Source: a virus
Taxonomy: Duplodnaviria; Heunggongvirae; Uroviricota; Caudoviricetes
IMG/VR virus record: IMGVR_UViG_2663763232_000016
DNA: 10,031 nucleotides
Reading direction: 5' to 3' (one strand)
Shown here: piece after piece, positions 1 through 10,031 of the stretch
Layout: the number at the start of each line of letters is the position of its first letter
How positions within the stretch are numbered: the stretch's first letter is position 1
Made by a program: the position numbers and the translations under genes
The notes under the pieces: generated by a model
The model's database searches: none
The model's input: only the letters and a program-made list of their open reading frames with translations
What the model was told of the DNA's origin: nothing

Positions 1-360
1 TACTCTGCCAGCCTGACCAACTTCACTTCGTCAATACGGTTCTCGCTATACGCTTACCGTACAAAAGCACTAGCTCTGGCTGAACTTTATAAAGCTAACG
101 AGGTTGCAGCCGATGACAAAATTGGTGGTCGTAAGGTGGAAGTAACCGGAACTGTACAGGACATAACAAAAAATTTCACGGATGATGTAGTTCTTAAACT
201 TGAAAGCGGTAATCGCTTCATGCCAGTCAGTCTGAGTATGTCTGATTCAGAAAAGGCGAAAGCGTCGAAATTGGAAAAGGGCCAGAAGATCACCGTGACT
301 TGCGAAAAGATGCAGTTTTTCATCGGTGCACCGTCTGGCGGAAACTGCACCTTTAACTAA
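1..360 (+). CDS. C-terminal part of an OB-fold (tRNA_anti-like / BOF-type) protein; gene start lies upstream of the window
   Basis: Frame 1 is open from base 1 to TAA at 358-360 (the ORF track shows only the part from GTG 136). The translation ...ELYKANEVAADDKIGGRKVEVTGTVQDI...KGQKITVTCEK has the spacing typical of small OB-fold proteins. Family call is pattern recognition only. Confidence 0.55.
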   Translation, partial: YSASLTNFTSSIRFSLYAYRTKALALAELYKANEVAADDKIGGRKVEVTGTVQDITKNFTDDVVLKLESGNRFMPVSLSMSDSEKAKASKLEKGQKITVTCEKMQFFIGAPSGGNCTFN

Positions 361-375
361 TCTGTCATACGGTCT

Positions 376-394
376 GCCGGGTAAAATTCCCGGC
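376..394. repeat. Hairpin-forming inverted repeat GCCGGG-TAAAATT-CCCGGC just after the OB-fold gene stop; no adjacent T-tract
   Basis: Perfect 6-bp arms read directly from the sequence, 16 nt downstream of the TAA at 358-360. A terminator role is not supported by a U-run. Confidence 0.3.
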
Positions 395-1653
395 AACTCA
401 TCTACCCCACCTCATGGATGTCCCTGCTATTTGACGATCCAGCTTACATGCTCTTGCTGAAAATATCTTACGGCTCTCTGGGCCAGGTGCCTGACGTGAC
501 AGACGATCCCTCAATAATTTCTTATCTTCTTGCTGAAATATCGCAGAGCCGACAGGCCCAGTAACGTATTTCACCACTTCATCCCGTAGAGCATCACAGC
601 AGGGAAAACTTGCCGCAATAGGGCATTCTACTGTTCGTTTTCTGGTCTATTTAACATAATGGTTCTTATAAGTACTTGACTGGAATGGTCAGGTATTACT
701 TTTCGGAACGTTGACGCGAAGCTGGGTACACAACAGCGATTTCACCAACAGAAGGAAAGCATTCAGGAGGATTCGAGGTGAGTTCTCTTGTTCAAGGATT
801 TTGGATGAGTTTGCCTGGTCACCACACAATTTCAGGTTTCAGACCTTTGAGGCTGCCAGTGTGTCAAACGCCATAAAAGCACTTTTTTCTGTTTACCAGC
901 AGACACAAAGCCACTACACCGACGTTACCACAACGGGCTGAAGGTCTGCCATCACCTGGTGATATTCACGAGCCTGACCGCCACTGTTTCGTACCATTTC
1001 CCAAAACAATGTAAACAGCCAACCCACCAATCCCTTCTACGCTCCACCAGAAGCGCTACAGTGCGTTATCCCCCCAGATGTAAACTGACGTACCGATAAT
1101 CCACGACATCCCACAGCGCGATACAGGAACCACCAGAGGACATCTGTTTTAGTTTTAATGTGTCTTTTTTATTTTTTGTAAAAAGATGGTTCAGAAAGTG
1201 GGTTGTGTTTAGCACCCATTCAATTGGCGGATTCGCCTAGGCCGCGCCATTACTGGCTTCGCTGCATGCACCACACCATAACGCCCATAGGTACAAACTT
1301 GTGATTTGTACGTTTAGTGACCACTTTAGCATGATTAACTACGGATTATAGGCTATTTGAGGTGTATTTAATCTACTTTGTTCGCAGGATAGCCAATGAT
1401 AAAGATCATCCACCAAATTTTCACAGAAAACTAGTATAGGGTTGCCAATCTTCAGCCAGCGCGGAGAATGGTCGGTATTTTCAGATGAAAGCGGGGGAGG
1501 GAGATGATCAATTCTCGGAGCGGATCAGGTGCCTGGACCGCCTCAGGTGTTGCCGTCGATTGTGCCATTGAAGCATGACGCGGACATATCAAACCAGAAG
1601 TTTTCATCGGTGCGTTGGTCGCTTGGATGACTTGGAAAATTCTCACCCGGTGA

Positions 1654-1743
1654 TACCTGCACGATTTTCGTGTACCCACCCCCTCGATTTTCGAGCACCT
1701 ACCTGCACGATTTTCGAGTAGGGGGTAGTCGATTTTCGAGCAC
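1654..1743. repeat. Iteron-like array: four direct repeats of core CGATTTTCG(A/T)G, organised as a tandem ~46-bp duplication, followed by an AT-rich tract
   Basis: Core copies start at 1662, 1685, 1708 and 1730 (spacing 23, 23, 22 bp, about two helical turns). Units 1654-1699 and 1700-1745 are near-identical except the centre (CCCACCCCC versus TAGGGGGTA). AT-rich run AATAATAATAAATAACAAT begins at 1744. Confidence 0.6.
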
Positions 1744-2246
1744 AATAATAATAAATAACAATCTCCATAAAAGAACTGATAAGAAAAGTACCTCCAGGTC
1801 GAGAGCACGGAATGACGGTTGGTCATTCTGTTAGTTTTAATAGTGATGCTTCTGCATCGCTCCGCTCTGCAATGGCTGGTCAGCCACTTCAGATATGTTT
1901 GTGGTAAGAAGCTCACCTTTGCTGACGTGAAACAGCCGCGCCATCTCGTGACCTTCTAACCCTCGTTAACACATCGCTACGCTCTGTGACTCGGGTAACC
2001 CGACAGGCTACGCCAGAGAGCTACGCTCTCACTCTGTGTGGAAGCTGCGAACTTGTTCGCCATATGTGGATCGGAGCACGGCGGAGAGGACTGCTTTGCA
2101 TCTGTCCGGTTCACTCCGGGGCGGCGCGGGTTGTCTAACTGACTTCCTCAGCGCCTCTCTACGGCGTTTAAATGGTGTGGGTAACACGATGGTACTGCTA
2201 TAACGACGAGTCCCCGCAGAACGCGTCACAGAACGATCTAGCACTA

Positions 2247-2275
2247 TTGACAAAGATTTTTTAAACTTGTAATGT
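2247..2275 (+). promoter_or_regulatory. Sigma70-like promoter TTGACA-17-TAATGT
   Basis: -35 TTGACA at 2247-2252, 17-nt spacer, -10 TAATGT at 2270-2275; lies upstream of the cluster beginning at 2492. Confidence 0.45.
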
Positions 2276-2317
2276 TATGGTGATTATTATGCATTATAAA
2301 ATGCTACATGATAATGA

Positions 2318-2346
2318 TTGCTATTTACAAACAAATCTGATACAAT
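2318..2346 (+). promoter_or_regulatory. Sigma70-like promoter TTGCTA-17-TACAAT
   Basis: -35 TTGCTA at 2318-2323, 17-nt spacer, -10 TACAAT at 2341-2346; about 145 nt upstream of the ATG at 2492. Confidence 0.45.
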
Positions 2347-2491
2347 AGATTTTAGTAGGGTAATGATTTACCTACGAATCCTCGAATAATTCTGCCGTCA
2401 TCACGACATTCCTTGTCAACCTCACGGCATTACAAAATGGGTTACAAATAGAACCTCCGCGAATAATTCTTTTAACAGAACGGAGAACCCA

Positions 2492-2938
2492 ATGAATAAA
2501 CCAAAATCCCAACGTCTCGACCTGACCACTATGACAGGCGAGCAGATCGCTGATCTCATCCTGAACGGCAAATACACCAAATCAGCTTTGTGGGCCTTCA
2601 TTAGTAGAAACGGCGGGGCAGACGCTGTACATGCTCGACTTCCTCAGATCGCCGTCTGCCTGCAAATCCTGAAGCAGGCGCGGAAGAAAGCGAAGCAGGC
2701 ACGAGTGGTTAAGACGGTGCTGAAGCCTCTGAGCAATAAATATGCTGAGGGTAATTCCTTAACGCAAATCCTGAATCCTGTGTTACAGGGCTACCGCGAG
2801 CTATATAGAGAAAAACTGAATCTGGACCTGACACCAGAACAGGTGATCTTGCTCTTGATCGCCACTGATGGTGTGGAACGTCTGGAATCCTACGGTTACA
2901 CCTGTGCGGGTGACTTCCCGACCGCAACCGCAGTCTAA
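2492..2938 (+). CDS. Hypothetical protein, 148 aa, first gene of the cluster
   Basis: ATG at 2492 preceded by GGAGA at 2482-2486 (5-nt spacing); TAA at 2936-2938. No family recognised. Confidence 0.8.
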   Translation: MNKPKSQRLDLTTMTGEQIADLILNGKYTKSALWAFISRNGGADAVHARLPQIAVCLQILKQARKKAKQARVVKTVLKPLSNKYAEGNSLTQILNPVLQGYRELYREKLNLDLTPEQVILLLIATDGVERLESYGYTCAGDFPTATAV

Positions 2939-3025
2939 CAACACTGAACAAAACCTGAGCCGGTTCGCCTTTGGGCGACCACTGGCGGGAGGTCTTTTGT
3001 ACCTAAAACGAGGAGGACAACTTGA

Positions 3026-3229
3026 ATGAACATCAAATTTCAACAGCACGTTTATCAGGCTCTACTAGCTGAGGCCAAAAGGCAGGACAAGCCCCTGGCA
3101 CGGCTCTGTAATGAAATCTTGGAGACTGCCGCGAACATTTTCGACAACACACCAGACATCAAACCAGCATTAGCCAGCAAGGCGACACTTTACGGAGAAC
3201 AGAATGAGCAAACAGAACCGGGACAGTAA
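3026..3229 (+). CDS. Small DNA-binding protein, ribbon-helix-helix-like (CopG/Arc/ParG-type fold suspected), 67 aa
   Basis: AGGAGG at 3011-3016, 9 nt before ATG 3026. N-terminal short strand (NIKFQQ) followed by two predicted helices (HVYQALLAEAKRQD / PLARLCNEILETA) matches RHH layout. Not confirmed by search. Confidence 0.7.
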   Translation: MNIKFQQHVYQALLAEAKRQDKPLARLCNEILETAANIFDNTPDIKPALASKATLYGEQNEQTEPGQ

Positions 3230-3950
3230 GGATTTTGTAAAACTTGAATACAGCATTCTCGACCTTACCGAGTACAACGGCCTGACCATTAATGGCAACA
3301 TGAAAATTTTGCTATCTCTGGTTTACAGCTATGACAAAACAGGCAGAACTTATTACGAGTCTGTTGGCATGATTGGTAAACGTTGCGGCTGCAAGCCCGA
3401 AGCCGTTCGTAATTTCAGGAACAAGCTTCGTGAAGCGGGAATGATCACTTTTGAGGAAGAGCAGGGGAGAACACACAAAATTTCTCCGGTCGAACTCGAT
3501 CCATCGTTGATGGTTTTTCTTGACGATCATAATTCCACGCAGGTGAGTAATAGAAAAGTGGAAACCGAGGAGAGCGGTAAGAATGAGCAGAAACGTGATG
3601 TGGAATCTTTCGTGGTGGAACCTGCCGCGCCTGTTGCTGGAAAACCAGACGGCCTACCTGTTGTGGATATTCCTGTCGATGCTGATGTACCTGCCAATGA
3701 TGATGCGGTGAACGCTTCTGATAGGTATACCGATGAACAATTAGGCACCAAGCTGAGGCGATGGCGCAATTGGGGACTGGATGAAGAAGCAAAAGCGTTT
3801 TGTCTCTCTCATGGTATCAGCAGCGATGAGGACAGCATGAATCTGTTTATTCAAAATTATCATGTACCCGCACCGGAGTCAGTAGAACAACAGGTTAACG
3901 CCCCAGCAGATGAGCTGCCGCTTGATTATGATGACTCGATCCCTTTCTGA
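3204..3950 (+). CDS. Protein with N-terminal winged-helix-like DNA-binding domain (resembling replisome-organizer / replication-initiator N-domains) and an acidic, low-complexity C-terminal half, 248 aa
   Basis: GGAGA at 3194-3198, 5 nt before ATG 3204; the start overlaps the 3-prime end of the RHH gene by 26 nt. Segment KILLSLVYSYDKTGRTYYESVGMIGKRCGCKPEAVRNFRNKLREAGMITFEE looks like helix-turn-wing. C-terminal half is rich in D/E/P. Confidence 0.8.
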   Translation: MSKQNRDSKDFVKLEYSILDLTEYNGLTINGNMKILLSLVYSYDKTGRTYYESVGMIGKRCGCKPEAVRNFRNKLREAGMITFEEEQGRTHKISPVELDPSLMVFLDDHNSTQVSNRKVETEESGKNEQKRDVESFVVEPAAPVAGKPDGLPVVDIPVDADVPANDDAVNASDRYTDEQLGTKLRRWRNWGLDEEAKAFCLSHGISSDEDSMNLFIQNYHVPAPESVEQQVNAPADELPLDYDDSIPF

Positions 3951-3964
3951 TACTGGAGGAATAA

Positions 3965-4486
3965 TTGTGTGATGTTGCCAACAGCCTGACGGCTGAAACC
4001 CTTACGGTGCGAAGCACTTTACCAGAGGTAAACAAATCCGGTGCTGACGCCCCTGATTTGTCCCGTTTTTACAAGGCCCGCTCTCGTGATACCTCGTTGA
4101 TCGAGACTGCTAAAAAAATGCTCGTTCACGGTTACACCCCAGGCAAAACGGCGCTGCTCCTACGCTTGCCGTATGACCTGGTAAAAGGCCTTTACGATAA
4201 CTCGTGGAATCCTCGCTGTCGCAAGATAAGTAATACCAGTCAGTACGCTACTAAGCGAATGGCCCGAATGTACTACGAATCCGGCGCAATGCTGGCAAAA
4301 ATCTGTGCTGACCTTCAACTGCCTCTATTCACTGTGGTAACGCTGCTCAAGCGTGAAGGAATCACTGAAAAAGAAATGGCATCTCGAATGCCTGTTAGTG
4401 ATGATCCGTTGTTCATTGAGTACCGGAAGACTATTTCACGCAAGCAGGCAGCGCCCCAACGCCGATCACCACGACTGCATTATTAA
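3965..4486 (+). CDS. Hypothetical protein with two HTH-like segments, 173 aa; start codon uncertain
   Basis: ORF runs from TTG 3965 to TAA 4484-4486; GGAGGA at 3955-3960 sits only 4 nt upstream. HTH-like stretches: SLIETAKKMLVHGYTPGKTALLLRL and GAMLAKICADLQLPLFTVVTLLKREG. GYTPGKT is not a canonical Walker A motif. Confidence 0.65.
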   Translation: MCDVANSLTAETLTVRSTLPEVNKSGADAPDLSRFYKARSRDTSLIETAKKMLVHGYTPGKTALLLRLPYDLVKGLYDNSWNPRCRKISNTSQYATKRMARMYYESGAMLAKICADLQLPLFTVVTLLKREGITEKEMASRMPVSDDPLFIEYRKTISRKQAAPQRRSPRLHY

Positions 4487-4600
4487 TACCCCAGCCGGGG
4501 AAACTTGACCCTATTTGAATATTTATCCTTTCTGCCGTTAGCGGTAGCTGTTCTCCAATGGCTTCGTGACGGCCTGGACCTCTACAGGAAACATAACAAT

Positions 4601-4933
4601 ATGAATAACATTGAAGCAATCCGCGCCAGTATCCGGGAAGCAATGACCGCAGGAACAGACGAACCGGAAGATCTGAACAAATCCGCTGAAGAAGCATTGG
4701 CGGAGGCGGTGCAGAGTTACCTGTCCGCTTCGACTGCAACAGCCAGCGAGCCAGCCCCAAAAAGTGGTAAAACCATCAAGGAAAAAGGGATCGCTCTGTG
4801 CCACCAAGCCCAAGGTTATAGCGCTAATCTGCGTCCGGTAAGTCTCATGATGAAGGCAAGTCTTGATGAGCTAACACCTGAACAACGCGCCGCGCTTGAG
4901 CGTCTGGGTTACGATATCAATCAGGGGGTGTGA
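4601..4933 (+). CDS. Hypothetical protein, about 110 aa from ATG 4601; the in-frame TTG at 4505 would add 32 hydrophobic residues
   Basis: AGGAAA at 4585-4590 lies 10 nt before ATG 4601. The TGA stop at 4931-4933 overlaps the ATG of the next gene (TGATG). Alternative longer ORF from TTG 4505 as given in the ORF track. Confidence 0.6.
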   Translation: MNNIEAIRASIREAMTAGTDEPEDLNKSAEEALAEAVQSYLSASTATASEPAPKSGKTIKEKGIALCHQAQGYSANLRPVSLMMKASLDELTPEQRAALERLGYDINQGV

Positions 4934-7074
4934 TGTCTGGCACAAATAAGATTGTTACCAGCACCGTTAATGAAATCTCGTGGATCACAGACGATGCCTC
5001 ATATCAAAAAGCCAAAAAGAAGATTATCTCGCTTAAGGCTGCTCATGAGAAACCAGCTAAAGCGCTTGAGAAGGCCCAGAAGCGGACCGTCCAGAGTGAA
5101 GGCAAAGCAGCACTAGCCGCAGCGAAAGCCCAGACAGCGAAGCTACGCCAGGCTGAACAATTGTCAAAACAGCAACAGAAACAAGCTCAGATACAAGCCA
5201 AAATGGAACGGGATGCAGTCTCCCACGCTAATAAAATGACCTCATTACAGGCGCGTCAGTTATCCCAGCAGGAACAGGCCGCACGGCAGAATGCCAGACT
5301 AGCAGCGATATCTGACAAGGTGAGACAGGCGAGTCGCTCCCGTGCAATGACCTACAATCCCAACATGCCTGGAGTTCACTCCGATCCATCTCTGGTGGCA
5401 CGTCAAAATGCAGCGATGAACCGTGGTCACGGCGCTGTTGCTGCTGACATCGCAGCCACCAAAAAGGCGATGGCCTTGGAGGAGAAGCGTCAGCGTGAGA
5501 AAGAGGCAGGCCTTAAGCGCGAGGTGACTTATTACAACAGTTTGCGCCGTAGCGCTCTGACTCTGGCAAACGTGAACGGCGCTGACGTTGCAACCCGGTA
5601 CAAAGCCATCAGTGCAGCAAAAGAGGCACTTAAAGCCCAGAAAGAAGAGCGCTATACGGTTGAAGAGACCCGCTTCGAAATGGCTCGTATCACCACCGAA
5701 TTACGCAAGCAGGCTCGTCTGCAACAGCGTATGACCCGTGAGCAGAAAGCCGCAGGTGTTCGTGCTGGTCGTGTACGCACAGAAAGCCGTGGTGGTAGAG
5801 CTGGTCTTGCAGCTGCTGGTGTTATTGGTGGTGCGTCGTTAGTGGGTAGTATGGGCGTTTCTCGTGTCGGTCAGACCCTCCAGGGAAGCCTTGAGCGCTC
5901 TCGCGATGTGAAAAAACTCCAGCAGTACGGGATCAGCAACCTTGAGTTCGCTGCACTTCAGGATCTCTCGATGAGCCGTGTTGGTTACTCACTGAGTGCT
6001 GACAAGCTGGCTGACCTCAACAAGGACACAACCGAAAAGGCCGGGGAATTGTTAAACACCGGCTCTTTCAAACGTAACAAGAAAACTGGACAGGTGAATT
6101 TCAGCGGCGGTGGCGAGTTCGCAGATATCATCAACAATGTGCTGACCTCCACCAACGGTAACCAGAAGGTAGCACAGAAGGTGATCGGAGAACTGCAAAA
6201 GCTGGATTTTCCGACCTTCATCACTTACCTGAAACAGTTGCAGAAAACTTTCAAATGGACGGACAACCAGACCCGGCACCTGGCTGAGGCTGTGAATGAT
6301 GGTTCGGTCTTCCTCGAAGTGTTCAATGATGAGGGGCAGGGACTTATCCAGCGTATGCATCAACTCTCTTCTGAAGGATGGACCCTATCTGATGCGCAGC
6401 AAGCCAACCTCGATAAACTGGCGGCGTTAGGTGCTGAGTACAACCGAGTGCAAACCAGCCTTGCAGATCATTTCTCAGCCTCGTTTGTTGAAGGCCTGGG
6501 GCAGTACGCTGCCAATACTGAAACTCTACGTCAGAAGATGACTGGACTGATCCCAATTTCCGATGCCCTCGGCGTTGCCCTTGGTGAGCTAACCACCAAC
6601 ATTCTCTCCTTCTCTGGTCGAGTCGGTGAAGAACTTAAGAAAGGCGCGACATTGCCGGATGCGGTGTATGCGAGCGTGGTAGATGAATCTGCAAACGGTG
6701 CTGCCGATTGGATTAAGGAAAAGACAGGCTTTGATCCACGTAGCATCGGTCAGACGCTTAAGCAGATTTACCCGTGGCTGGATAGTTCAGCACCGAGCAA
6801 TATTGGCTCAGGCACGGCGTATAACGATCCAGCGCTAGCGTTGAATGTTCCTAGCCTGAACTATCTGACACCCCAGCAACCGACGTTTACGGTTCCGACA
6901 ATTGACAGCATGACGCTGCGACAGCCGATTCCTGTCAGTGTTACCGGGCAAGCGAACATTAATCAGCAGATGGATGTGTTTGTCCATGACGATAAGATCG
7001 CAGGGCTGGTTGATACCAAGATAAGGGAGAACAACCACGCGCAGAATAACCTCATCCTTGGGATTGCAGACTAA
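4933..7074 (+). CDS. Large protein (about 713 aa) with N-terminal A/K/Q-rich coiled-coil region, central glycine-zipper hydrophobic segment and a C-terminal domain of about 400 aa; function unknown (virion structural, scaffold-like or tape-measure-like are possibilities)
   Basis: ATG 4933 coupled to the upstream stop (TGATG) with AGGGGG at 4923-4928; a GTG at 4930 is the ORF-track start. TAA at 7072-7074. Hydrophobic segment GRAGLAAAGVIGGASLVGSMGV. No P-loop or catalytic motif recognised. Confidence 0.9.
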   Translation: MSGTNKIVTSTVNEISWITDDASYQKAKKKIISLKAAHEKPAKALEKAQKRTVQSEGKAALAAAKAQTAKLRQAEQLSKQQQKQAQIQAKMERDAVSHANKMTSLQARQLSQQEQAARQNARLAAISDKVRQASRSRAMTYNPNMPGVHSDPSLVARQNAAMNRGHGAVAADIAATKKAMALEEKRQREKEAGLKREVTYYNSLRRSALTLANVNGADVATRYKAISAAKEALKAQKEERYTVEETRFEMARITTELRKQARLQQRMTREQKAAGVRAGRVRTESRGGRAGLAAAGVIGGASLVGSMGVSRVGQTLQGSLERSRDVKKLQQYGISNLEFAALQDLSMSRVGYSLSADKLADLNKDTTEKAGELLNTGSFKRNKKTGQVNFSGGGEFADIINNVLTSTNGNQKVAQKVIGELQKLDFPTFITYLKQLQKTFKWTDNQTRHLAEAVNDGSVFLEVFNDEGQGLIQRMHQLSSEGWTLSDAQQANLDKLAALGAEYNRVQTSLADHFSASFVEGLGQYAANTETLRQKMTGLIPISDALGVALGELTTNILSFSGRVGEELKKGATLPDAVYASVVDESANGAADWIKEKTGFDPRSIGQTLKQIYPWLDSSAPSNIGSGTAYNDPALALNVPSLNYLTPQQPTFTVPTIDSMTLRQPIPVSVTGQANINQQMDVFVHDDKIAGLVDTKIRENNHAQNNLILGIAD

Positions 7075-7158
7075 AATCATCGTTCCGTCGAAAATGGCGC
7101 AGCAAATTGGCCCACACGAGAGAGGGCCGTTGAATTCGCCATGTTATTGTTTTTGTTG

Positions 7159-7187
7159 TTGCAAATGATAATCATTCGTGTTAAAAT
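7159..7187 (+). promoter_or_regulatory. Strong sigma70-like promoter TTGCAA-17-TAAAAT with extended -10 TG
   Basis: -35 TTGCAA at 7159-7164, 17-nt spacer, TG at 7179-7180, -10 TAAAAT at 7182-7187, set in an AT-rich stretch; predicted start near 7195. Confidence 0.4.
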
Positions 7188-7243
7188 AATATACAAGGTG
7201 AATTACAACAGCCAAATGTTTTCCCTTCTCCTTAGGAATCAAA

Positions 7244-7270
7244 GTGCGCTTTTCCCAGAGCGCCTTTTCT
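7244..7270 (+). terminator. Weak intrinsic-terminator-like hairpin about 50-75 nt downstream of the 7159-7187 promoter
   Basis: GCGCT (7246-7250) pairs with AGCGC (7259-7263) around an 8-nt loop, followed by CTTTTCT (7264-7270). Short stem, so low confidence. Confidence 0.3.
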
Positions 7271-7532
7271 CATACAGCCAATATTCGCACCCTCTCACGG
7301 TAAGGTTAGGCCATTGCCGCTGGCTGTATCAGAAAAGATTTTCTCCGACCTTGGATCGGGGATTTGCCAAAGCCTTTCATCCTCGGAAGGCCGTCTTGCC
7401 AGACGAAAACTGGCATTGAGTGCGGCAGCGAAGATATGAGGTCTCCCGCTGCTGTGCTCCCTCATTCCTGAAGCGTGACCCGCCGATCATGCTTTCCAAA
7501 TCTCTCCATCAGAAAATACCATCGTGAAGCTA

Positions 7533-7552
7533 TTAGCAACGCATGTTGCTAA
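7533..7552. repeat. 20-bp palindrome TTAGCAAC-GCAT-GTTGCTAA (candidate operator or RNA hairpin)
   Basis: Perfect 8-bp inverted arms with a 4-bp spacer, read directly from the sequence; sits between the promoter at 7159 and the terminators at 7595-7678. Confidence 0.5.
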
Positions 7553-7594
7553 CCCGTAAACGGGTGAATTTCATCATCTCCGATGATCTACCAA

Positions 7595-7629
7595 CCGGGG
7601 CAGGCGTTTTCCTGCCTCCGGCTCTTTTT
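7595..7629 (+). terminator. Rho-independent terminator (about 10-bp stem with one bulge, then CTCTTTTT)
   Basis: CCGGGGCAGG (7595-7604) pairs with CCTGCC-T-CCGG (7611-7621) around loop CGTTTT; T-run at 7625-7629. Confidence 0.5.
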
Positions 7630-7654
7630 CTGTTGGGAATACAAATAAAAGAAT

Positions 7655-7678
7655 GCCGTCCGATGGACGGTATTTTTT
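7655..7678 (+). terminator. Rho-independent terminator (GC-rich stem CCGTCC/GGACGG followed by TATTTTTT)
   Basis: Stem 7656-7661 pairs with 7665-7670 around a 3-nt loop; T-run at 7673-7678; 40 nt upstream of the capsid-pair start. Confidence 0.6.
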
Positions 7679-7735
7679 CAACACAACCCGGCATATTCGC
7701 CGGATTATAAAAATTGCATGGAGATACAACAAAAT

Positions 7736-8080
7736 ATGGCATTCGAACATGAAAGCAAAACCCCACAGGATGTATTGGTTTATACCGATAGCCCGATCTT
7801 TCATAAGCGCACCGTGATCTTTGATCTGGCTGCTGATGTGACTTGTGGTGATGTGATTAACCCGACCACTGGCGCGGCATACGTTGCAGCCGATGCTGAT
7901 AACTGTGCTGTAGCTCTGCAAAATCAAATCGCTGGTGATGCCCGTAGCCTGGTCATTTCAGACCGTGGCTGTGTGTTCAATCCATCTGGTCTGGTTGTAG
8001 CGGCTGCTGCAAAAGATGCTGCTTACGCTGCCCTTGTTAAGCAAGGCAACCGCATTGCTGACGCAAACACTGCAATCTAA
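7736..8080 (+). CDS. Putative head decoration protein (lambda gpD-like size and composition), about 114 aa; alternative start ATG 7718
   Basis: ORF from ATG 7718 to TAA 8078-8080; the second ATG at 7736 has GGAGA at 7720-7724 (11-nt spacing) whereas 7718 has no Shine-Dalgarno. Small Ala/Gly-rich protein directly upstream of a capsid-sized gene; segment TTGAAYVAADADNCA resembles lambda D TDGAAVGILAVAADQ. Not confirmed by search. Confidence 0.7.
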   Translation: MAFEHESKTPQDVLVYTDSPIFHKRTVIFDLAADVTCGDVINPTTGAAYVAADADNCAVALQNQIAGDARSLVISDRGCVFNPSGLVVAAAAKDAAYAALVKQGNRIADANTAI

Positions 8081-8098
8081 TCAAGGAGTGATAACAAT

Positions 8099-9115
8099 AT
8101 GAAATTAAGTGATTTTACTAACCTTTCCGGTCAGTTTGTGAAGCCAAGCGGCGAGGGGTTCCTTCTGTCCAGCCTGGGGATCTTTACCAGCCGTCCAAGT
8201 GATACGCAAATCATCGCGCTCGACACACTGGAAGATGTGCAGCGTGAAGTGACCAAATCTGTTGCCCGTTATGGTTCTGAAATGTCCGGTCTAAACTTCC
8301 CTAAAGCGGCTAACGTGACTGTTCAGGCTCCACTGCATGTCTACAGCTCAACCATCACCAGCCAGGATTGGCAGGGGAAACGTCAGCCGGGAACAAATCG
8401 CCAGATGACCGCTGAAGATGTAGTTGCTAATCATACCCTGAAGCACTACCTGCAAACCCGCCGTGATGTTGAATATGCCATGGCGCAGAGCCTGCTTCAC
8501 AATACTGTAGAGGCGACACACCTTCGTGAAGGTCCTGATCTGAACTGGCAAACCTTCTGGGGTATTAACCAGCCGTCTGCTGTGGTGAAAACTGGCATCA
8601 GTGCCAACGTTATTACTGAGATGCAGAACGCTGTCACGCTGCTGAAGAAAAATCTGGGTGGCTGGTCTTCCAGCATCAAGCAGGTTTATCTGCTAGCGAG
8701 TCCGAGTCTTTTCACCGCCATTCAAGGCAACCCAACCGCATATCAGGCGGCTCTGTTTGGTGCTACGTCCCGTGACATCATTTTCCCTGACACTTTGGGC
8801 GCATATGATCGATACAACATCGGGCGCGTAACTGTAGTTCAGGTTGACGATCCGCTATACGGCATTGCAGATGGTGAAGGCTACATGCTGGCGACGTTCT
8901 CCAATGTTGTTGAAGGCGACCTTTCACCTTATATGACTTACCAGACTCCGGCGAGCCGTCATGCTGACGTTGCTAATGGTCCGGTTTATCCGTCTTACCA
9001 TTACGTTCTGCGTGATAAGTTCATGAATTATGAGGTGGTCAGCGAGCTATCACAAATTCAGATCCCAATGCGTCCAGACTTCGTTTTGAAAATTACGATG
9101 GATGACGCGGCGTAA
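8099..9115 (+). CDS. Putative major capsid protein (lambda gpE-like / HK97-fold class suggested by size and synteny), 338 aa
   Basis: AAGGAG at 8083-8088, 10 nt before ATG 8099; TAA at 9113-9115. Length close to lambda gpE (341 aa), directly downstream of the decoration-like gene, about 50 percent GC. Family call is from context and size, not from detectable identity to lambda E. Confidence 0.85.
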   Translation: MKLSDFTNLSGQFVKPSGEGFLLSSLGIFTSRPSDTQIIALDTLEDVQREVTKSVARYGSEMSGLNFPKAANVTVQAPLHVYSSTITSQDWQGKRQPGTNRQMTAEDVVANHTLKHYLQTRRDVEYAMAQSLLHNTVEATHLREGPDLNWQTFWGINQPSAVVKTGISANVITEMQNAVTLLKKNLGGWSSSIKQVYLLASPSLFTAIQGNPTAYQAALFGATSRDIIFPDTLGAYDRYNIGRVTVVQVDDPLYGIADGEGYMLATFSNVVEGDLSPYMTYQTPASRHADVANGPVYPSYHYVLRDKFMNYEVVSELSQIQIPMRPDFVLKITMDDAA

Positions 9116-9177
9116 GACAGCGTATTTTGGGGGCGCATTGCCCCCGCTGCAGGCGAGCCAAAGGAAAGGAGATACAT

Positions 9178-9390
9178 ATGAAATTAGCTTTGATCGGTAC
9201 TGGCAACATGCCGCTGATGCAGTGGATTCTAGATGGCAAGGGCGATGATGCGATTATCAACATGTCAGCGTTAGCACGCAGGCTTGAGTGTAGTCGTTCC
9301 AGCCTACTTGACCGCATCCATACGCATGGATTCGACAGCGCTATTAGGTACTACCTCAACGAACAGCGACAACGAAAACTGAAAACATGA
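9178..9390 (+). CDS. Small protein with HTH-like segment, 70 aa (the ORF track shows a longer version from 9127)
   Basis: AGGAGA at 9167-9172, 5 nt before ATG 9178; TGA at 9388-9390. Segment INMSALARRLECSRSSLLDRIH looks like a helix-turn-helix. Function unknown. Confidence 0.55.
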   Translation: MKLALIGTGNMPLMQWILDGKGDDAIINMSALARRLECSRSSLLDRIHTHGFDSAIRYYLNEQRQRKLKT

Positions 9391-9391
9391 G

Positions 9392-9416
9392 AGCCGGGTT
9401 AATCCCGGCTTTTTTT
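9392..9416. terminator. Bidirectional rho-independent terminator shared by the capsid transcription unit and the convergent minus-strand gene
   Basis: Perfect 7-bp stem AGCCGGG / CCCGGCT around loop TTAAT, flanked by an A-run upstream and TTTTTTT at 9410-9416. The stop codon of the minus-strand gene lies in the loop. Confidence 0.75.
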
Positions 9417-10031
9417 ATGTACTTTGCTGAAGTCAAAAAGATTGTCAAATTTAATGATATCTAATCCAGAGATAGCGTGATTAACATCTTTCATCATTGC
9501 GCCATGTTCATCATAAGCGTTACGTATTGCCATGAATTCTTCTGGTGTTATCTGTGCTTTAAGCAAAGCCTGCATGATGAGAGTCATCAGTTTTGAGATG
9601 GCTATTTGCGTATTACCAGAAGATCGAAGAAGGGCGTTGAATGGCTCCCAGGAAACCTTTTTAATCAGAACATTATAGTGACTTAACTTGATGAAAGAGC
9701 TACCAATGCGAAAGGTATTTTCCGTCATATCTTTCAAGGATTCTTGAATATGATAATAGCTTTCTTCGTCGGCTTTTTGTCCTGATTTCGCCAGTGTGTC
9801 GAGAAAAGTCATAATGCGGTTTAAGTCAAAGCGCATACGATTGTAACGGCTTCTGGTGCTATCAATTTCTTCTTTAAGAGCGATTGCTGAATCAATTGCC
9901 CGCTCCATTTTTCTCGTCTTCACAATCTCCTGAAGTTTAACCCCTCCGAAGATGACGCCGCCAACCACACTCAACGCTGTTACAGCATTCGAAGCGATAG
10001 AGATAATGTTATCCCATGCTTGTAAATCCAT
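9399..10031 (-). CDS. Membrane-anchored protein (N-terminal transmembrane helix plus helical soluble domain), at least 210 aa; possible moron / superinfection-exclusion or abortive-infection candidate; may extend beyond the window
   Basis: ORF ends at TAA (complement of 9399-9401); its ATG is the last three bases of the window, so the true start may lie outside. Hydrophobic segment IISIASNAVTALSVVGGVIFGGV near the N-terminus. Local GC is about 34 percent in a hand-counted 100-nt sample versus about 50 percent in the capsid gene. Confidence 0.8.
   Translation of the reverse strand: MDLQAWDNIISIASNAVTALSVVGGVIFGGVKLQEIVKTRKMERAIDSAIALKEEIDSTRSRYNRMRFDLNRIMTFLDTLAKSGQKADEESYYHIQESLKDMTENTFRIGSSFIKLSHYNVLIKKVSWEPFNALLRSSGNTQIAISKLMTLIMQALLKAQITPEEFMAIRNAYDEHGAMMKDVNHAISGLDIIKFDNLFDFSKVHKKSRD

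Follow-up and report, generated by a model that had tools for sequence, protein, structure and literature searches.

What kind of element carries a run of six poorly characterised genes directly ahead of phage capsid genes is the question raised by the stretch of DNA analysed here, a sequence of 10,031 nucleotides (hereafter the window) from the IMG/VR virus record IMGVR_UViG_2663763232_000016, assigned to the Caudoviricetes. These genes, ORF1 to ORF6, are followed by genes for a head decoration protein (Dec) and a major capsid protein (MCP), and in an initial annotation they were regarded as a possible regulatory, replication or accessory module. This view holds for the first four, among which ORF2 is weakly ribbon-helix-helix (RHH)-like, ORF3 a predicted replication initiator and ORF4 a tandem helix-turn-helix (HTH) protein, but not for ORF5 and ORF6, which appear to be morphogenesis genes, the whole corresponding to the core of a satellite-like element. 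On the basis of sequence comparisons, this element probably represents an undescribed family of satellites of virulent rV5/phi92-like myoviruses, which would form their own capsids and, like PLE11 of Vibrio, chimeric tails. The likely helpers, on which the element would depend, are large virulent myoviruses belonging to the Vequintavirinae (rV5 type) and to the related Stephanstirmvirinae (phi92 type).

The window covers most of an integrase-bearing island of 13,369 bp. Its positions 54-10031 are 100% identical to the chromosomes of Escherichia coli TC24 and AREA_C483, and in the latter the island (locus L031; such L-numbers are the labels of the compared loci) is bounded by 71-bp direct repeats and a tyrosine integrase. 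These repeats, 95.8% identical to each other, duplicate part of the thiamine pyrophosphate (TPP) riboswitch of thiM; the island sits inside this riboswitch and regenerates it, two riboswitch copies being annotated. The gene order consists of the integrase, three small genes, an OB-fold gene resembling superinfection-exclusion (Sie) genes, 2.1 kb of geneless DNA, the six-gene cluster, 0.64 kb of non-coding DNA, a gpD-like Dec gene, a gpE-like MCP gene, a small conserved gene and a reverse-strand cargo gene. In E. coli, relatives located at tRNA-Gly and tRNA-Thr have different integrases and the same core, and a riboswitch is an unusual attachment (att) site when compared to the tRNA sites used by these relatives. 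The size of the bounded islands (n = 5) is 11.8-13.4 kb. The first 53-58 bases of the window are not island sequence, since the reference genomes align from base 54 on and plasmid matches are confined to positions 1-58, which correspond to the end of an IS66-family insertion sequence (IS) seen on Klebsiella plasmids. In the source genome of the window, this IS appears to have inserted into the Sie-like cargo gene, interrupting it at position 53/54; in the identical E. coli genomes, this gene carries an OB-fold annotation.

Related sequence was found in 51 of 5,426 complete E. coli genomes, in every case on the chromosome. Homologs of ORF6 more than 92% identical are present in Escherichia, Enterobacter, Klebsiella and Cronobacter, and 17 further loci were retrieved from 16 species representatives belonging to Enterobacter, Pseudocitrobacter (two copies), Kluyvera, Silvania, Pantoea, Winslowiella, Citrobacter, Pseudenterobacter, Rahnella, Biostraticola, Buttiauxella and Klebsiella. 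The same gene order also occurs in an IMG/VR provirus and on Logan contigs of 11.8 and 13.3 kb whose ends coincide with att repeats.

The cluster described in the initial annotation was recovered in full. The same six plus-strand open reading frames (Table 1) are annotated by RefSeq in both identical E. coli genomes, both overlaps are real (26 nt at 3204-3229 and a TGATG stop/start at 4931-4935), and a Shine-Dalgarno sequence lies ahead of every start. The start of ORF6 is most likely ATG 4933, as in the PGAP annotation, rather than GTG 4930, and that of ORF4 is TTG 3965, preceded by a strong GGAGG, while the start of ORF5 is ambiguous between TTG 4505 and ATG 4601. Comparative genomics, suggested earlier as a check on whether the genes co-occur, showed that the order ORF1-ORF2-ORF3-ORF4-ORF5-(ORF6)-Dec-MCP-small ORF is kept in more than 25 islands of Enterobacterales. 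Compared with a 65-87%-identical relative, dN/dS was 0.22-0.60 for ORF1, ORF3, ORF4 and ORF6, 0.28 for Dec and 0.06 for MCP, that is, below 1 for all six genes tested, as expected under purifying selection. The recurring gene order and these ratios indicate that the cluster is real and conserved far beyond chance. Searches with Pfam, NCBIfam and PADLOC revealed no NTPase, nuclease or polymerase domain, in agreement with an earlier statement based on motifs, and no product matches portal, protease or terminase families, so that the cluster is indeed distinct from a terminase-portal-protease-scaffold module. A defence-system assignment of the six genes was dropped, as PADLOC gave no meaningful match among them.

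A link to phage tails is provided by the last gene. ORF6 had been described as a 714-residue coiled-coil/membrane protein, a description superseded by profile and homology searches, which point to a tape-measure protein (TMP). It matches the PHROG TMP families 36805 (8.7e-14), 5255 (1.6e-8) and 21358 (8e-6). Its residues 308-565 share 31% identity (E 5e-31) with the product of a gene at the TMP position of the Klebsiella myophages KP13-16 and FBKp34, placed after sheath, tube and two small genes and before baseplate genes, and its residues 5-218 align with residues 3-234 of the TMP of phage JohannBauhin (Bas53) with 28% identity (E 6e-14). In L030, a locus otherwise close to the window (85-100% identity for ORF1, ORF2, ORF5, Dec, MCP and the N-terminal ~150 residues of ORF3; 39% for ORF4), the allele in the ORF6 slot matches phrog_5255 at 5.3e-97 and residues 191-773 of the Bas53 TMP. 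ORF6 also has a Gly/Ala-rich hydrophobic segment at residues ~290-312, which is typical of TMPs. It has no Pfam match, including to TMP domains; the Bas53 TMP has TMP_3 at 1.5e-18. The gene lies outside the usual TMP position, being flanked by ORF5, which is not a chaperone, and by Dec/MCP, in an island without tube, sheath or hub genes. Judging from these matches, ORF6 is a tape-measure homolog.

ORF5, to which ORF6 is translationally coupled, provides the link to phage heads. It was one of two products considered unassignable, which remains true of ORF1 despite a confident structural model, whereas ORF5 contains a copy of a scaffold N-terminus. Residues 87-137 of ORF5 match positions 15-66 of the 354-position family phrog_2970 (2.7e-16). 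A tblastn search with the concatenated small proteins retrieved 208 phage records; 60 of these, taken at even intervals along the ranking, were inspected, and in each one the matching stretch was residues 86-139 of ORF5. The core of this cassette (residues 88-127) is 70-76% identical to its counterpart in rV5-type phages, including rV5, FV3, PVP-SE1, GAP31, KpS8 and Hena1. In Bas53, whose genes are arranged in the order TerL-portal-XkdF protease-scaffold-Dec-MCP, the match corresponds to residues 7-41 of the annotated head scaffold protein, and the alignment reaches ~45 residues (TIKEKGIALCHQAQGYSANLRPVSLMMK in ORF5 versus TIKEKGIALCHKAQGYSANNRPVSLLMK in the phage). Alignment by hhalign gave a probability of 95.9% to the scaffold. 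A role as tail assembly chaperone was rejected, as the probability for the Bas53 and FBKp34 chaperones was less than 1%, and so was a contribution of the motif to the XkdF protease fold, as the Bas53 protease domain is complete alone and the scaffold N-terminus has no Pfam domain. The first ~45 residues, inside ORF5, are all that the island has of a scaffold, with no full-length scaffold, portal or protease upstream of Dec-MCP. The island MCP is only ~20% identical to that of Bas53, versus 70-76% for the ORF5 cassette, which argues that this segment has been either recently acquired or held constant to fit a helper-encoded partner. A second class of ORF5 has the N-terminal half in common and a different cassette.

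Two further observations concern ORF5 and its phage counterparts. The N-terminal 32-36 residues (positions 4505-4600) form, by eye, a hydrophobic transmembrane-type helix which is in frame in the window, while in L026 (6388-6582), L027 (6528-6704) and L004 (15468-15674) this part is a separate ORF of 50-72 codons in another frame, overlapping the ORF5 start; it could be a small membrane protein or a frameshift arrangement. Among the records with the rV5-type scaffold N-terminus are several named "Campylobacter phage" (MG065652, MG065654, MG065635, MG065672 and others), most of those sampled carrying it at 76% identity, a value equal to that of E. coli rV5-like phages. Five of six sampled are 135-143 kb long and C11 is 59 kb; the host labels of these records may be wrong.

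The two capsid genes are consistent with the same group of phages. Dec matches Pfam HDPD (6e-4) and phrog_2680, "head decoration" (0.014), and a profile of the island Dec proteins aligned by hhalign with Dec of rV5/phi92-type phages at 89% (E 2e-6). The MCP matches phrog_29 (2.5e-9) and Pfam Phage_cap_E (0.0028) and is, over its full length, 20-24% identical to the MCPs of Bas53, Klebsiella Stephanstirmvirinae and Pseudomonas phiPsa374-like phages. Both the Dec-MCP order and the gene sizes match those of rV5/phi92-type phages. At least three MCP types, 26-33% identical, exist in the family, even where ORF6 is 96% identical (window versus L005), which indicates that the capsid module is exchanged independently. 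More generally, Rep, ORF5, TMP and MCP are exchanged as modules. Dec, MCP, TMP and the scaffold fragment are the only virion genes of the island, and its proteins gave no family match in Pfam, NCBIfam or PHROG to portal, protease, terminase, connector, tube, sheath, baseplate, lysis, primase or helicase functions.

A small motif in the non-coding leader of the capsid genes also connects the island with these phages. This element of two or three hairpins, also present in Vequintavirinae phages, gave a blastn match of 38 bp with 89.5% identity to Salmonella Seunavirus phages, and is also found in Proteus phage Mydo and the rV5-like Klebsiella phage NDO71. Its stems are kept while its loops vary, with one compensatory change, in L017. 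The phage version has an 11-bp closing stem, giving a cloverleaf (z = -5), and lies within a conserved intergenic region of ~330 bp flanked by TCGTTCGCGTnATCGTGG repeats (hairpin at 2985-3050 in both L007 and L008). No Rfam family matched the element. Together with the terminator-like hairpin that follows it just upstream of Dec, it may constitute a helper-controlled late or antitermination leader.

Besides virion genes, the island appears to carry its own replication system. ORF3 matches Pfam HTH_36 (4.6e-4), PHROG replication-initiator families including phrog_186 (5.6e-6) and PDB entry 4ro3 (6.5e-14), followed by winged-helix (wHTH) regulators. Six of nine members of its family match phrog_8102, the best E-value being 3.9e-9 (phrog_270), and its relatives show PF22182 (DUF6945) at residues 19-98; for the C-terminal domain, no relative could be detected. 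Some 800 bp upstream of ORF1, and ~1.5 kb upstream of ORF3, the iteron core CGATTTTCG is present in four copies, three of which extend to CGATTTTCGAG, with a spacing of 22-23 bp and with the AT-rich tract AATAATAATAAATAACAA directly after them. At the same relative position, 16 of 20 other islands have at least three repeats, each with its own sequence. The iteron sequence tracks the N-terminal domain of ORF3 (window with L002; L014 with L028; L013 with L021; and an ACTGAA group formed by L015, L018, L019, L022 and L024), while the C-terminal domain is swapped independently. Because the iterons co-vary with the N-terminal domain, ORF3 is proposed to be an iteron-binding replication initiator acting on this putative origin, which is the best supported functional assignment of the study.

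This arrangement resembles lambda O/ori and plasmid Rep systems, in which a winged-helix initiator is associated with three to four repeats ~22 bp apart beside an AT-rich tract and specificity changes with the repeats. The island differs from such iteron replicons in that its iterons are located far upstream of rep, beyond two genes, and not inside or adjacent to it, that the C-terminal domain of the initiator is without known relatives and that no helicase or loader gene is present. A genome of Pseudocitrobacter vendiensis contains two islands (L014 and L015) whose MCPs are 90-91% identical to that of the window and whose Rep/iteron types and ORF6 alleles differ, which hints at compatibility groups.

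An own iteron origin and Rep, along with MCP and Dec in the absence of packaging genes, might also be expected of an autonomous integrative plasmid-like replicon that uses an MCP/Dec shell for another purpose, such as a nanocompartment or a particle resembling a gene transfer agent (GTA), independently of any helper. Such a replicon is extremely improbable here, as without terminase and portal it cannot load DNA alone, nothing like a compartment cargo was seen, Pfam and NCBIfam scans disclosed no partition or conjugation genes, and a TMP homolog and a scaffold mimic only make sense beside phage head and tail parts.

The iterons are embedded in a 2.1-kb non-coding control region that contains no long ORF or pseudogene trace in six frames. 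No gene is annotated in this region in the top 14 of the 42 E. coli genomes carrying it, and in the next 21 listed, a hypothetical gene lies under the match. A large structured RNA was rejected for now, since no Rfam match was obtained at E <= 1 and the conserved block at 958-1290 showed no consensus fold on either strand. This block, the most widely conserved of the non-coding DNA, is kept even where the genes of the islands are down to 30% identity. No ORF, Rfam family or phage match was found for it, and it could be a site for packaging or for a host factor. When positions 361-2491 and 7050-7740 were compared with all phage records by blastn, just a few segments of ~30-65 bp were recovered, including the Vequintavirinae hairpin motif.

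These data also bear on whether the locus is a decayed prophage remnant, that is, a lambda-like or rV5-like head/tail fragment stranded next to an integrase and no longer functioning as a unit. A partial set of virion genes, 2.1 kb without genes and a presence in just 51 of the complete E. coli genomes would be compatible with decay. This origin is nevertheless barely credible considering that islands with this compact gene order and size are found in many genera, inserted at various att sites and equipped with intact integrases, that dN/dS indicates constraint on every gene tested, that the non-coding region is conserved with matched iterons and its gap is free of pseudogene traces, and that modules are swapped in register.

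The proposed satellite family can be compared with several known systems. In PLE11, the element's own TMP, tail assembly chaperone (TAC) and BhuB, 20-41% identical to those of ICP1, are swapped in and give rise to chimeric tails (PMC12987554). Like the island, PLE11 is small and integrative; it parasitises ICP1, a virulent myovirus of Vibrio cholerae, and its TMP is ~20% identical to that of its helper (PMC12987554), while ORF6 is 25-31% identical to candidate helper TMPs. PLE11 differs by its host and its replication module, and in addition it provides a tail chaperone and a baseplate hub and uses the 80-residue Rta to block the helper TMP, whereas no TAC or hub homolog was found in the island. 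Furthermore, PLEs remodel the helper coat, while the island has its own MCP and Dec.

Own capsids are known from the capsid-forming class of phage-inducible chromosomal islands (cf-PICIs), which are defined by protease, portal, connectors, HNH, TerS and TerL and have a quoted size of 15.4 kb (10.1101/2022.09.08.507074). Similarly to cf-PICIs such as EcCIEDL933, the island occurs in E. coli, is of similar size and encodes an integrase, a Rep and an HK97-fold MCP. The main difference is that cf-PICIs possess a full head and packaging set and steal tails only, whereas the island has MCP, Dec, a scaffold-like adaptor and a TMP only, with a different Rep and its own ORF1 and ORF4 families. The island thus falls outside the cf-PICI definition: MCP is present, and protease, portal, connectors, HNH, TerS and TerL were not found when the annotated island genes and the main ORFs of the window were scanned with Pfam and PHROG. 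When set against the int-alpA-rep (pri-rep) core of EcCICFT073-type PICIs, by description, the island has an integrase and a Rep belonging to the wHTH/DUF6945 type; with Pfam and PHROG, no primase or helicase domain was detected and the small proteins gave no match to the AlpA family.

P4, an integrative satellite of ~11.6 kb, replicates by its own system, decorates capsids with the protein Psu and has hotspots containing anti-phage systems. The island resembles P4-like elements in size and by its variable cargo slot. P4 has no coat protein or TMP and relies on the external scaffold Sid, the alpha primase-helicase and temperate P2-like helpers; this P4 gene set was not detected in the island. 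Since integrase, Rep-type initiator, MCP, size and defence slot are all reminiscent of such elements, and putative tmp genes have been reported in some cf-PICIs (PMC12987554, Extended Data Fig. 10), the island might be regarded as a divergent member of a known family, whether cf-PICI, classical Gram-negative PICI or P4-like. Such an affiliation is very unlikely, given the head and packaging genes missing for a cf-PICI, the failure to detect Sid, Psu, Delta, alpha primase-helicase, PICI pri-rep or Rpp with Pfam, PHROG and NCBIfam, and the confinement of the ORF1 and ORF4 families to these islands.

With regard to ORF5, the nearest parallel is SaPI1 CpmB, which reportedly copies the end of the 80alpha scaffolding protein and competes for its partner. 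Both are small satellite proteins with a terminal segment copying a scaffold end. CpmB copies the C-terminal coat-binding end and reshapes the helper coat into small capsids, while ORF5 copies the N-terminus and is accompanied by its own coat. In gene content, the island also recalls the EPIPs of Mycolicibacterium, small satellites with an MCP, a scaffolding protein and a TMP and lacking other tail genes (preprint, PMC12822802). EPIPs differ by the addition of TerS, a head-tail adaptor/stopper and a serine integrase, an actinobacterial host and a temperate siphovirus helper. Satellite TMPs are thus an emerging theme and not peculiar to this island. No paper was found that links satellites to Vequintavirinae, Stephanstirmvirinae or rV5, mentions DUF6945 or describes this island.

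As in satellites in general, the element is integrative, far smaller than a phage, equipped for its own replication and endowed with a partial, helper-related virion set. Collectively, the integrase and att sites, own origin and initiator, size of 11.8-13.4 kb, partial virion set, scaffold mimic, defence slot, mosaicism and near-identical copies in several genera are better explained by a satellite than by the remains of a prophage, an island serving defence only or a replicon independent of phages.

A mechanism can be proposed from these features. Transcription of the operon would be driven by two sigma70-type promoters and regulated by the RHH-like ORF2, possibly with the participation of ORF1, while ORF3 would bind the four iterons and fire the island's own origin. 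ORF4 may confer DNA-sequence specificity, either by designating an island packaging site to the helper terminase or by switching on the capsid genes. As its cassette copies the scaffold N-terminus, ORF5 would act as a scaffold-like adaptor whose C-terminal 40-50 residues plug into the helper part that binds this N-terminus, be it the portal, the XkdF-type protease or the coat; the outcome would be the recruitment of this part to island MCP/Dec capsids or competition with helper head assembly. Small capsids would be built from the island MCP, and ORF6, for which homology supports a TMP function, would replace the helper TMP in otherwise hijacked tails. Terminase, portal, protease, the remaining tail and lysis functions would be supplied by the helper. 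This detailed scheme, in which capsids of own coat and Dec form around helper portal and protease recruited by the scaffold-mimic adaptor, tails are chimeric through the island TMP and exchangeable cassettes track the helpers, is put forward tentatively and is a possibility rather than the expected outcome.

The accessory genes of the island bear on another explanation. The slot occupied in the window by a reverse-strand gene for a ~211-residue protein, homologs of which are found in the same place in L013 and L018, contains DarT with NADAR/DarG in L005 (8998-10351), a GNAT acetyltransferase in L003 (18089-18667) and DUF2441 in L006 (11282-11926). It is bordered on one side by the small gene that follows MCP and on the other by the integrase or att site, and behaves like a satellite defence hotspot. 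With DarTG and a Sie-like protein as cargo, the locus could be a phage-defence island, whose scaffold mimic and foreign TMP act as decoys or poisons of rV5-like head and tail assembly and which is neither packaged nor transferred by these phages. The ORF5 mimic could be a competitive inhibitor, neither the contig ends nor the IMG/VR matches point directly to packaging, and interference with tail assembly is a known defence strategy, which satellites combine with piracy (PMC11364771; PMC12987554). A purely defensive role appears unlikely all the same, because a full-length MCP under strong constraint and Dec are hard to explain as poisons, because own Rep and origin, integrase and a narrow size range fit a packaged replicon, and because the presence of almost identical copies in several genera implies that an island without conjugation genes is nevertheless transferred efficiently between hosts.

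Several observations weigh against the assignment of the island to satellites of rV5/phi92-like phages. Induction, excision, packaging and transfer are predictions made from gene content. No phage match to the window was obtained by megablast against 50,697 phage records, nor any meaningful cos/pac homology by blastn of positions 361-2491 against the same records, and the shared DNA motif amounts to one 38-bp match at E 4e-4. With identities of 25-31% for the TMP and 20-24% for the MCP to known phages, there is no close donor among sequenced phages. ORF6 is absent from about a third of the islands, a 65-residue remnant of its C-terminus in L013 suggesting loss by deletion, and tblastn against the phage collection gave no match for the cassette of the second ORF5 class, for which reason the interpretation of this cassette as a mimic of another phage's scaffold was rejected; ORF6 and the rV5-type cassette are thus not essential to the family. 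ORF1 and ORF4 are without an assigned mechanism, and we know of no partner for the scaffold N-terminus in rV5-like phages. Finally, no free element-sized contig was found in IMG/VR, five of six matches being located in UViGs of 26-65 kb and the sixth being a 4.7-kb fragment. Logan contigs of 11.8 and 13.3 kb, considered as an episomal or packaged form, stop at tRNA att repeats without terminal overlap and were attributed to assembly breaks.

Table 1. Features of the island; positions refer to the window unless a locus is named.
Feature	Position	Strand	Remarks
OB-fold (tRNA_anti-like), Sie-like superinfection-exclusion cargo gene, 3' end	54-360	+	Pfam tRNA_anti-like 7.4e-16; phrog_8545 4.6e-22
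Non-coding control region	361-2491		2.1 kb, upstream of operon; 84-91% conserved in close relatives
Most widely conserved non-coding block	958-1290		blastn and MAFFT, 15 islands
Putative replication origin	1654-1765		four iterons and AT-rich tract; direct-repeat family D1/D2
Tandem sigma70-like promoters	2247-2275; 2318-2346	+	TTGACA-17-TAATGT; TTGCTA-17-TACAAT with upstream TG
Leader direct repeats	2379-2470		two 15-bp repeats, TCCTCGAATAATTCT and TCCGCGAATAATTCT; repeat family D4; kept within the window's clade
ORF1, all-helical orphan	2492-2938	+	148 aa; first gene of the operon in 21/26 islands examined, where detected
ORF2, small RHH-like regulator (weak evidence)	3026-3229	+	67 aa
ORF3, predicted replication initiator	3204-3950	+	248 aa; N-terminal winged helix (HTH_36/DUF6945 region), acidic linker, exchangeable C-terminal domain
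ORF4, tandem (bipartite) HTH DNA-binding protein	3965-4486	+	173 aa; conserved C-terminal helix
ORF5, copy of scaffold N-terminus	4505-4933	+	142 aa (TTG 4505) or 110 aa (ATG 4601); helical N-terminal half and C-terminal cassette
ORF6, TMP homolog	4933-7074	+	713 aa; open reading frame from 4930; translationally coupled to ORF5
Non-coding leader of capsid genes	7075-7717		promoter-like site 7159-7187; hairpin element 7520-7565; terminator-like hairpin 7597-7626
Hairpin element	7520-7565	+	TTAGCAAC-N4-GTTGCTAA, then CCCGT-N3-ACGGG; also present in Vequintavirinae phages
Dec, head decoration protein (gpD-like)	7736-8080	+	114 aa; 120 aa from start 7718
MCP (lambda gpE type, HK97 fold)	8099-9115	+	338 aa; annotated MCP
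MCP genes compared with that of the window	L005 7666-8706; L003 16421-17455; L004 16907-17944		
Small conserved protein	9178-9390	+	70 aa (87 aa from TTG 9127); "HTH" annotation in some relatives
Bidirectional terminator	9389-9413		
Variable cargo slot	9399-10031	-	~211-aa protein, hydrophobic N-terminal segment by eye; continues past window end
att repeats, AREA_C483	L031 139-209 and 13508-13578		island ends
phrog_4641 gene	L031 2501-2707; L002 9523-9732; L003 8523-8732	- (L031)	68-69 aa; outside window

The remaining features of the operon concern its regulation. Of the two promoters proposed upstream of ORF1, both sites are present, the consensus scan recovering the 2318 site alone; the 2247 site is below the scan threshold and was read directly from the sequence. 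Promoter-like sites in the window are not above chance (13 found versus 10.8 +/- 3.4 expected). When the 290 bp preceding ORF1 were aligned for 21 islands, the -35/-10 pair at the 2318 position was seen to be kept in most of them, with TTGACA or TTGCTA in 18 islands including several divergent clades and with diverged flanks, while the TTGACA at 2247 is kept within the clade of the window. The direct repeats in the leader are candidate operator sites.

Among the small proteins of the operon, ORF1 is an island-specific orphan, for which HMMER, run exhaustively over 1.84 billion representative proteins, found 31 relatives only. Its confident model (pLDDT 83.9) consists of six helices and has no structural neighbour in PDB or BFVD. 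For ORF2, a profile built from eight homologs gave as best match the RHH regulator AvtR (PDB 4hv0) over residues 1-42 at E 0.006, which, together with a weak match to phrog_11622, "transcriptional regulator", and no Pfam match, points weakly to an RHH-like protein; it is 100% identical in L002 and L030. ORF4 is a candidate for conferring specificity on packaging or on late transcription, and its identification as a small terminase, for which nothing beyond generic HTH similarity was found, was left as a hypothesis. Outside the operon, the gene matching phrog_4641 points away from the 2.1-kb non-coding region, at the end opposite the six genes, and is a candidate repressor or excision factor. 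The small gene downstream of MCP is present in 19 of 26 islands, with no family match in Pfam or PHROG.

To our knowledge, satellites of virulent phages have been well studied essentially only in Vibrio (PLE/ICP1 and PICMIs). The present analysis gives roles to six "hypothetical" gene families of Escherichia, Klebsiella, Enterobacter, Cronobacter, Citrobacter and others, and flags a cargo slot for defence genes, including DarTG and a Sie-like protein. If the proposed satellite nature is correct, the island would extend the chimeric-tail strategy beyond Vibrio and would represent a new route of capsid piracy, in which an own coat protein is combined with a short segment mimicking the scaffold of the helper. 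It would also be an Enterobacteriaceae counterpart directed at rV5/phi92-like phages and a tractable E. coli model, for which both hosts and BASEL-type helpers are available. Such a satellite would have consequences for phage therapy, for which rV5-like phages are common candidates: strains carrying the island may resist these phages or turn their infection into transfer of the island.

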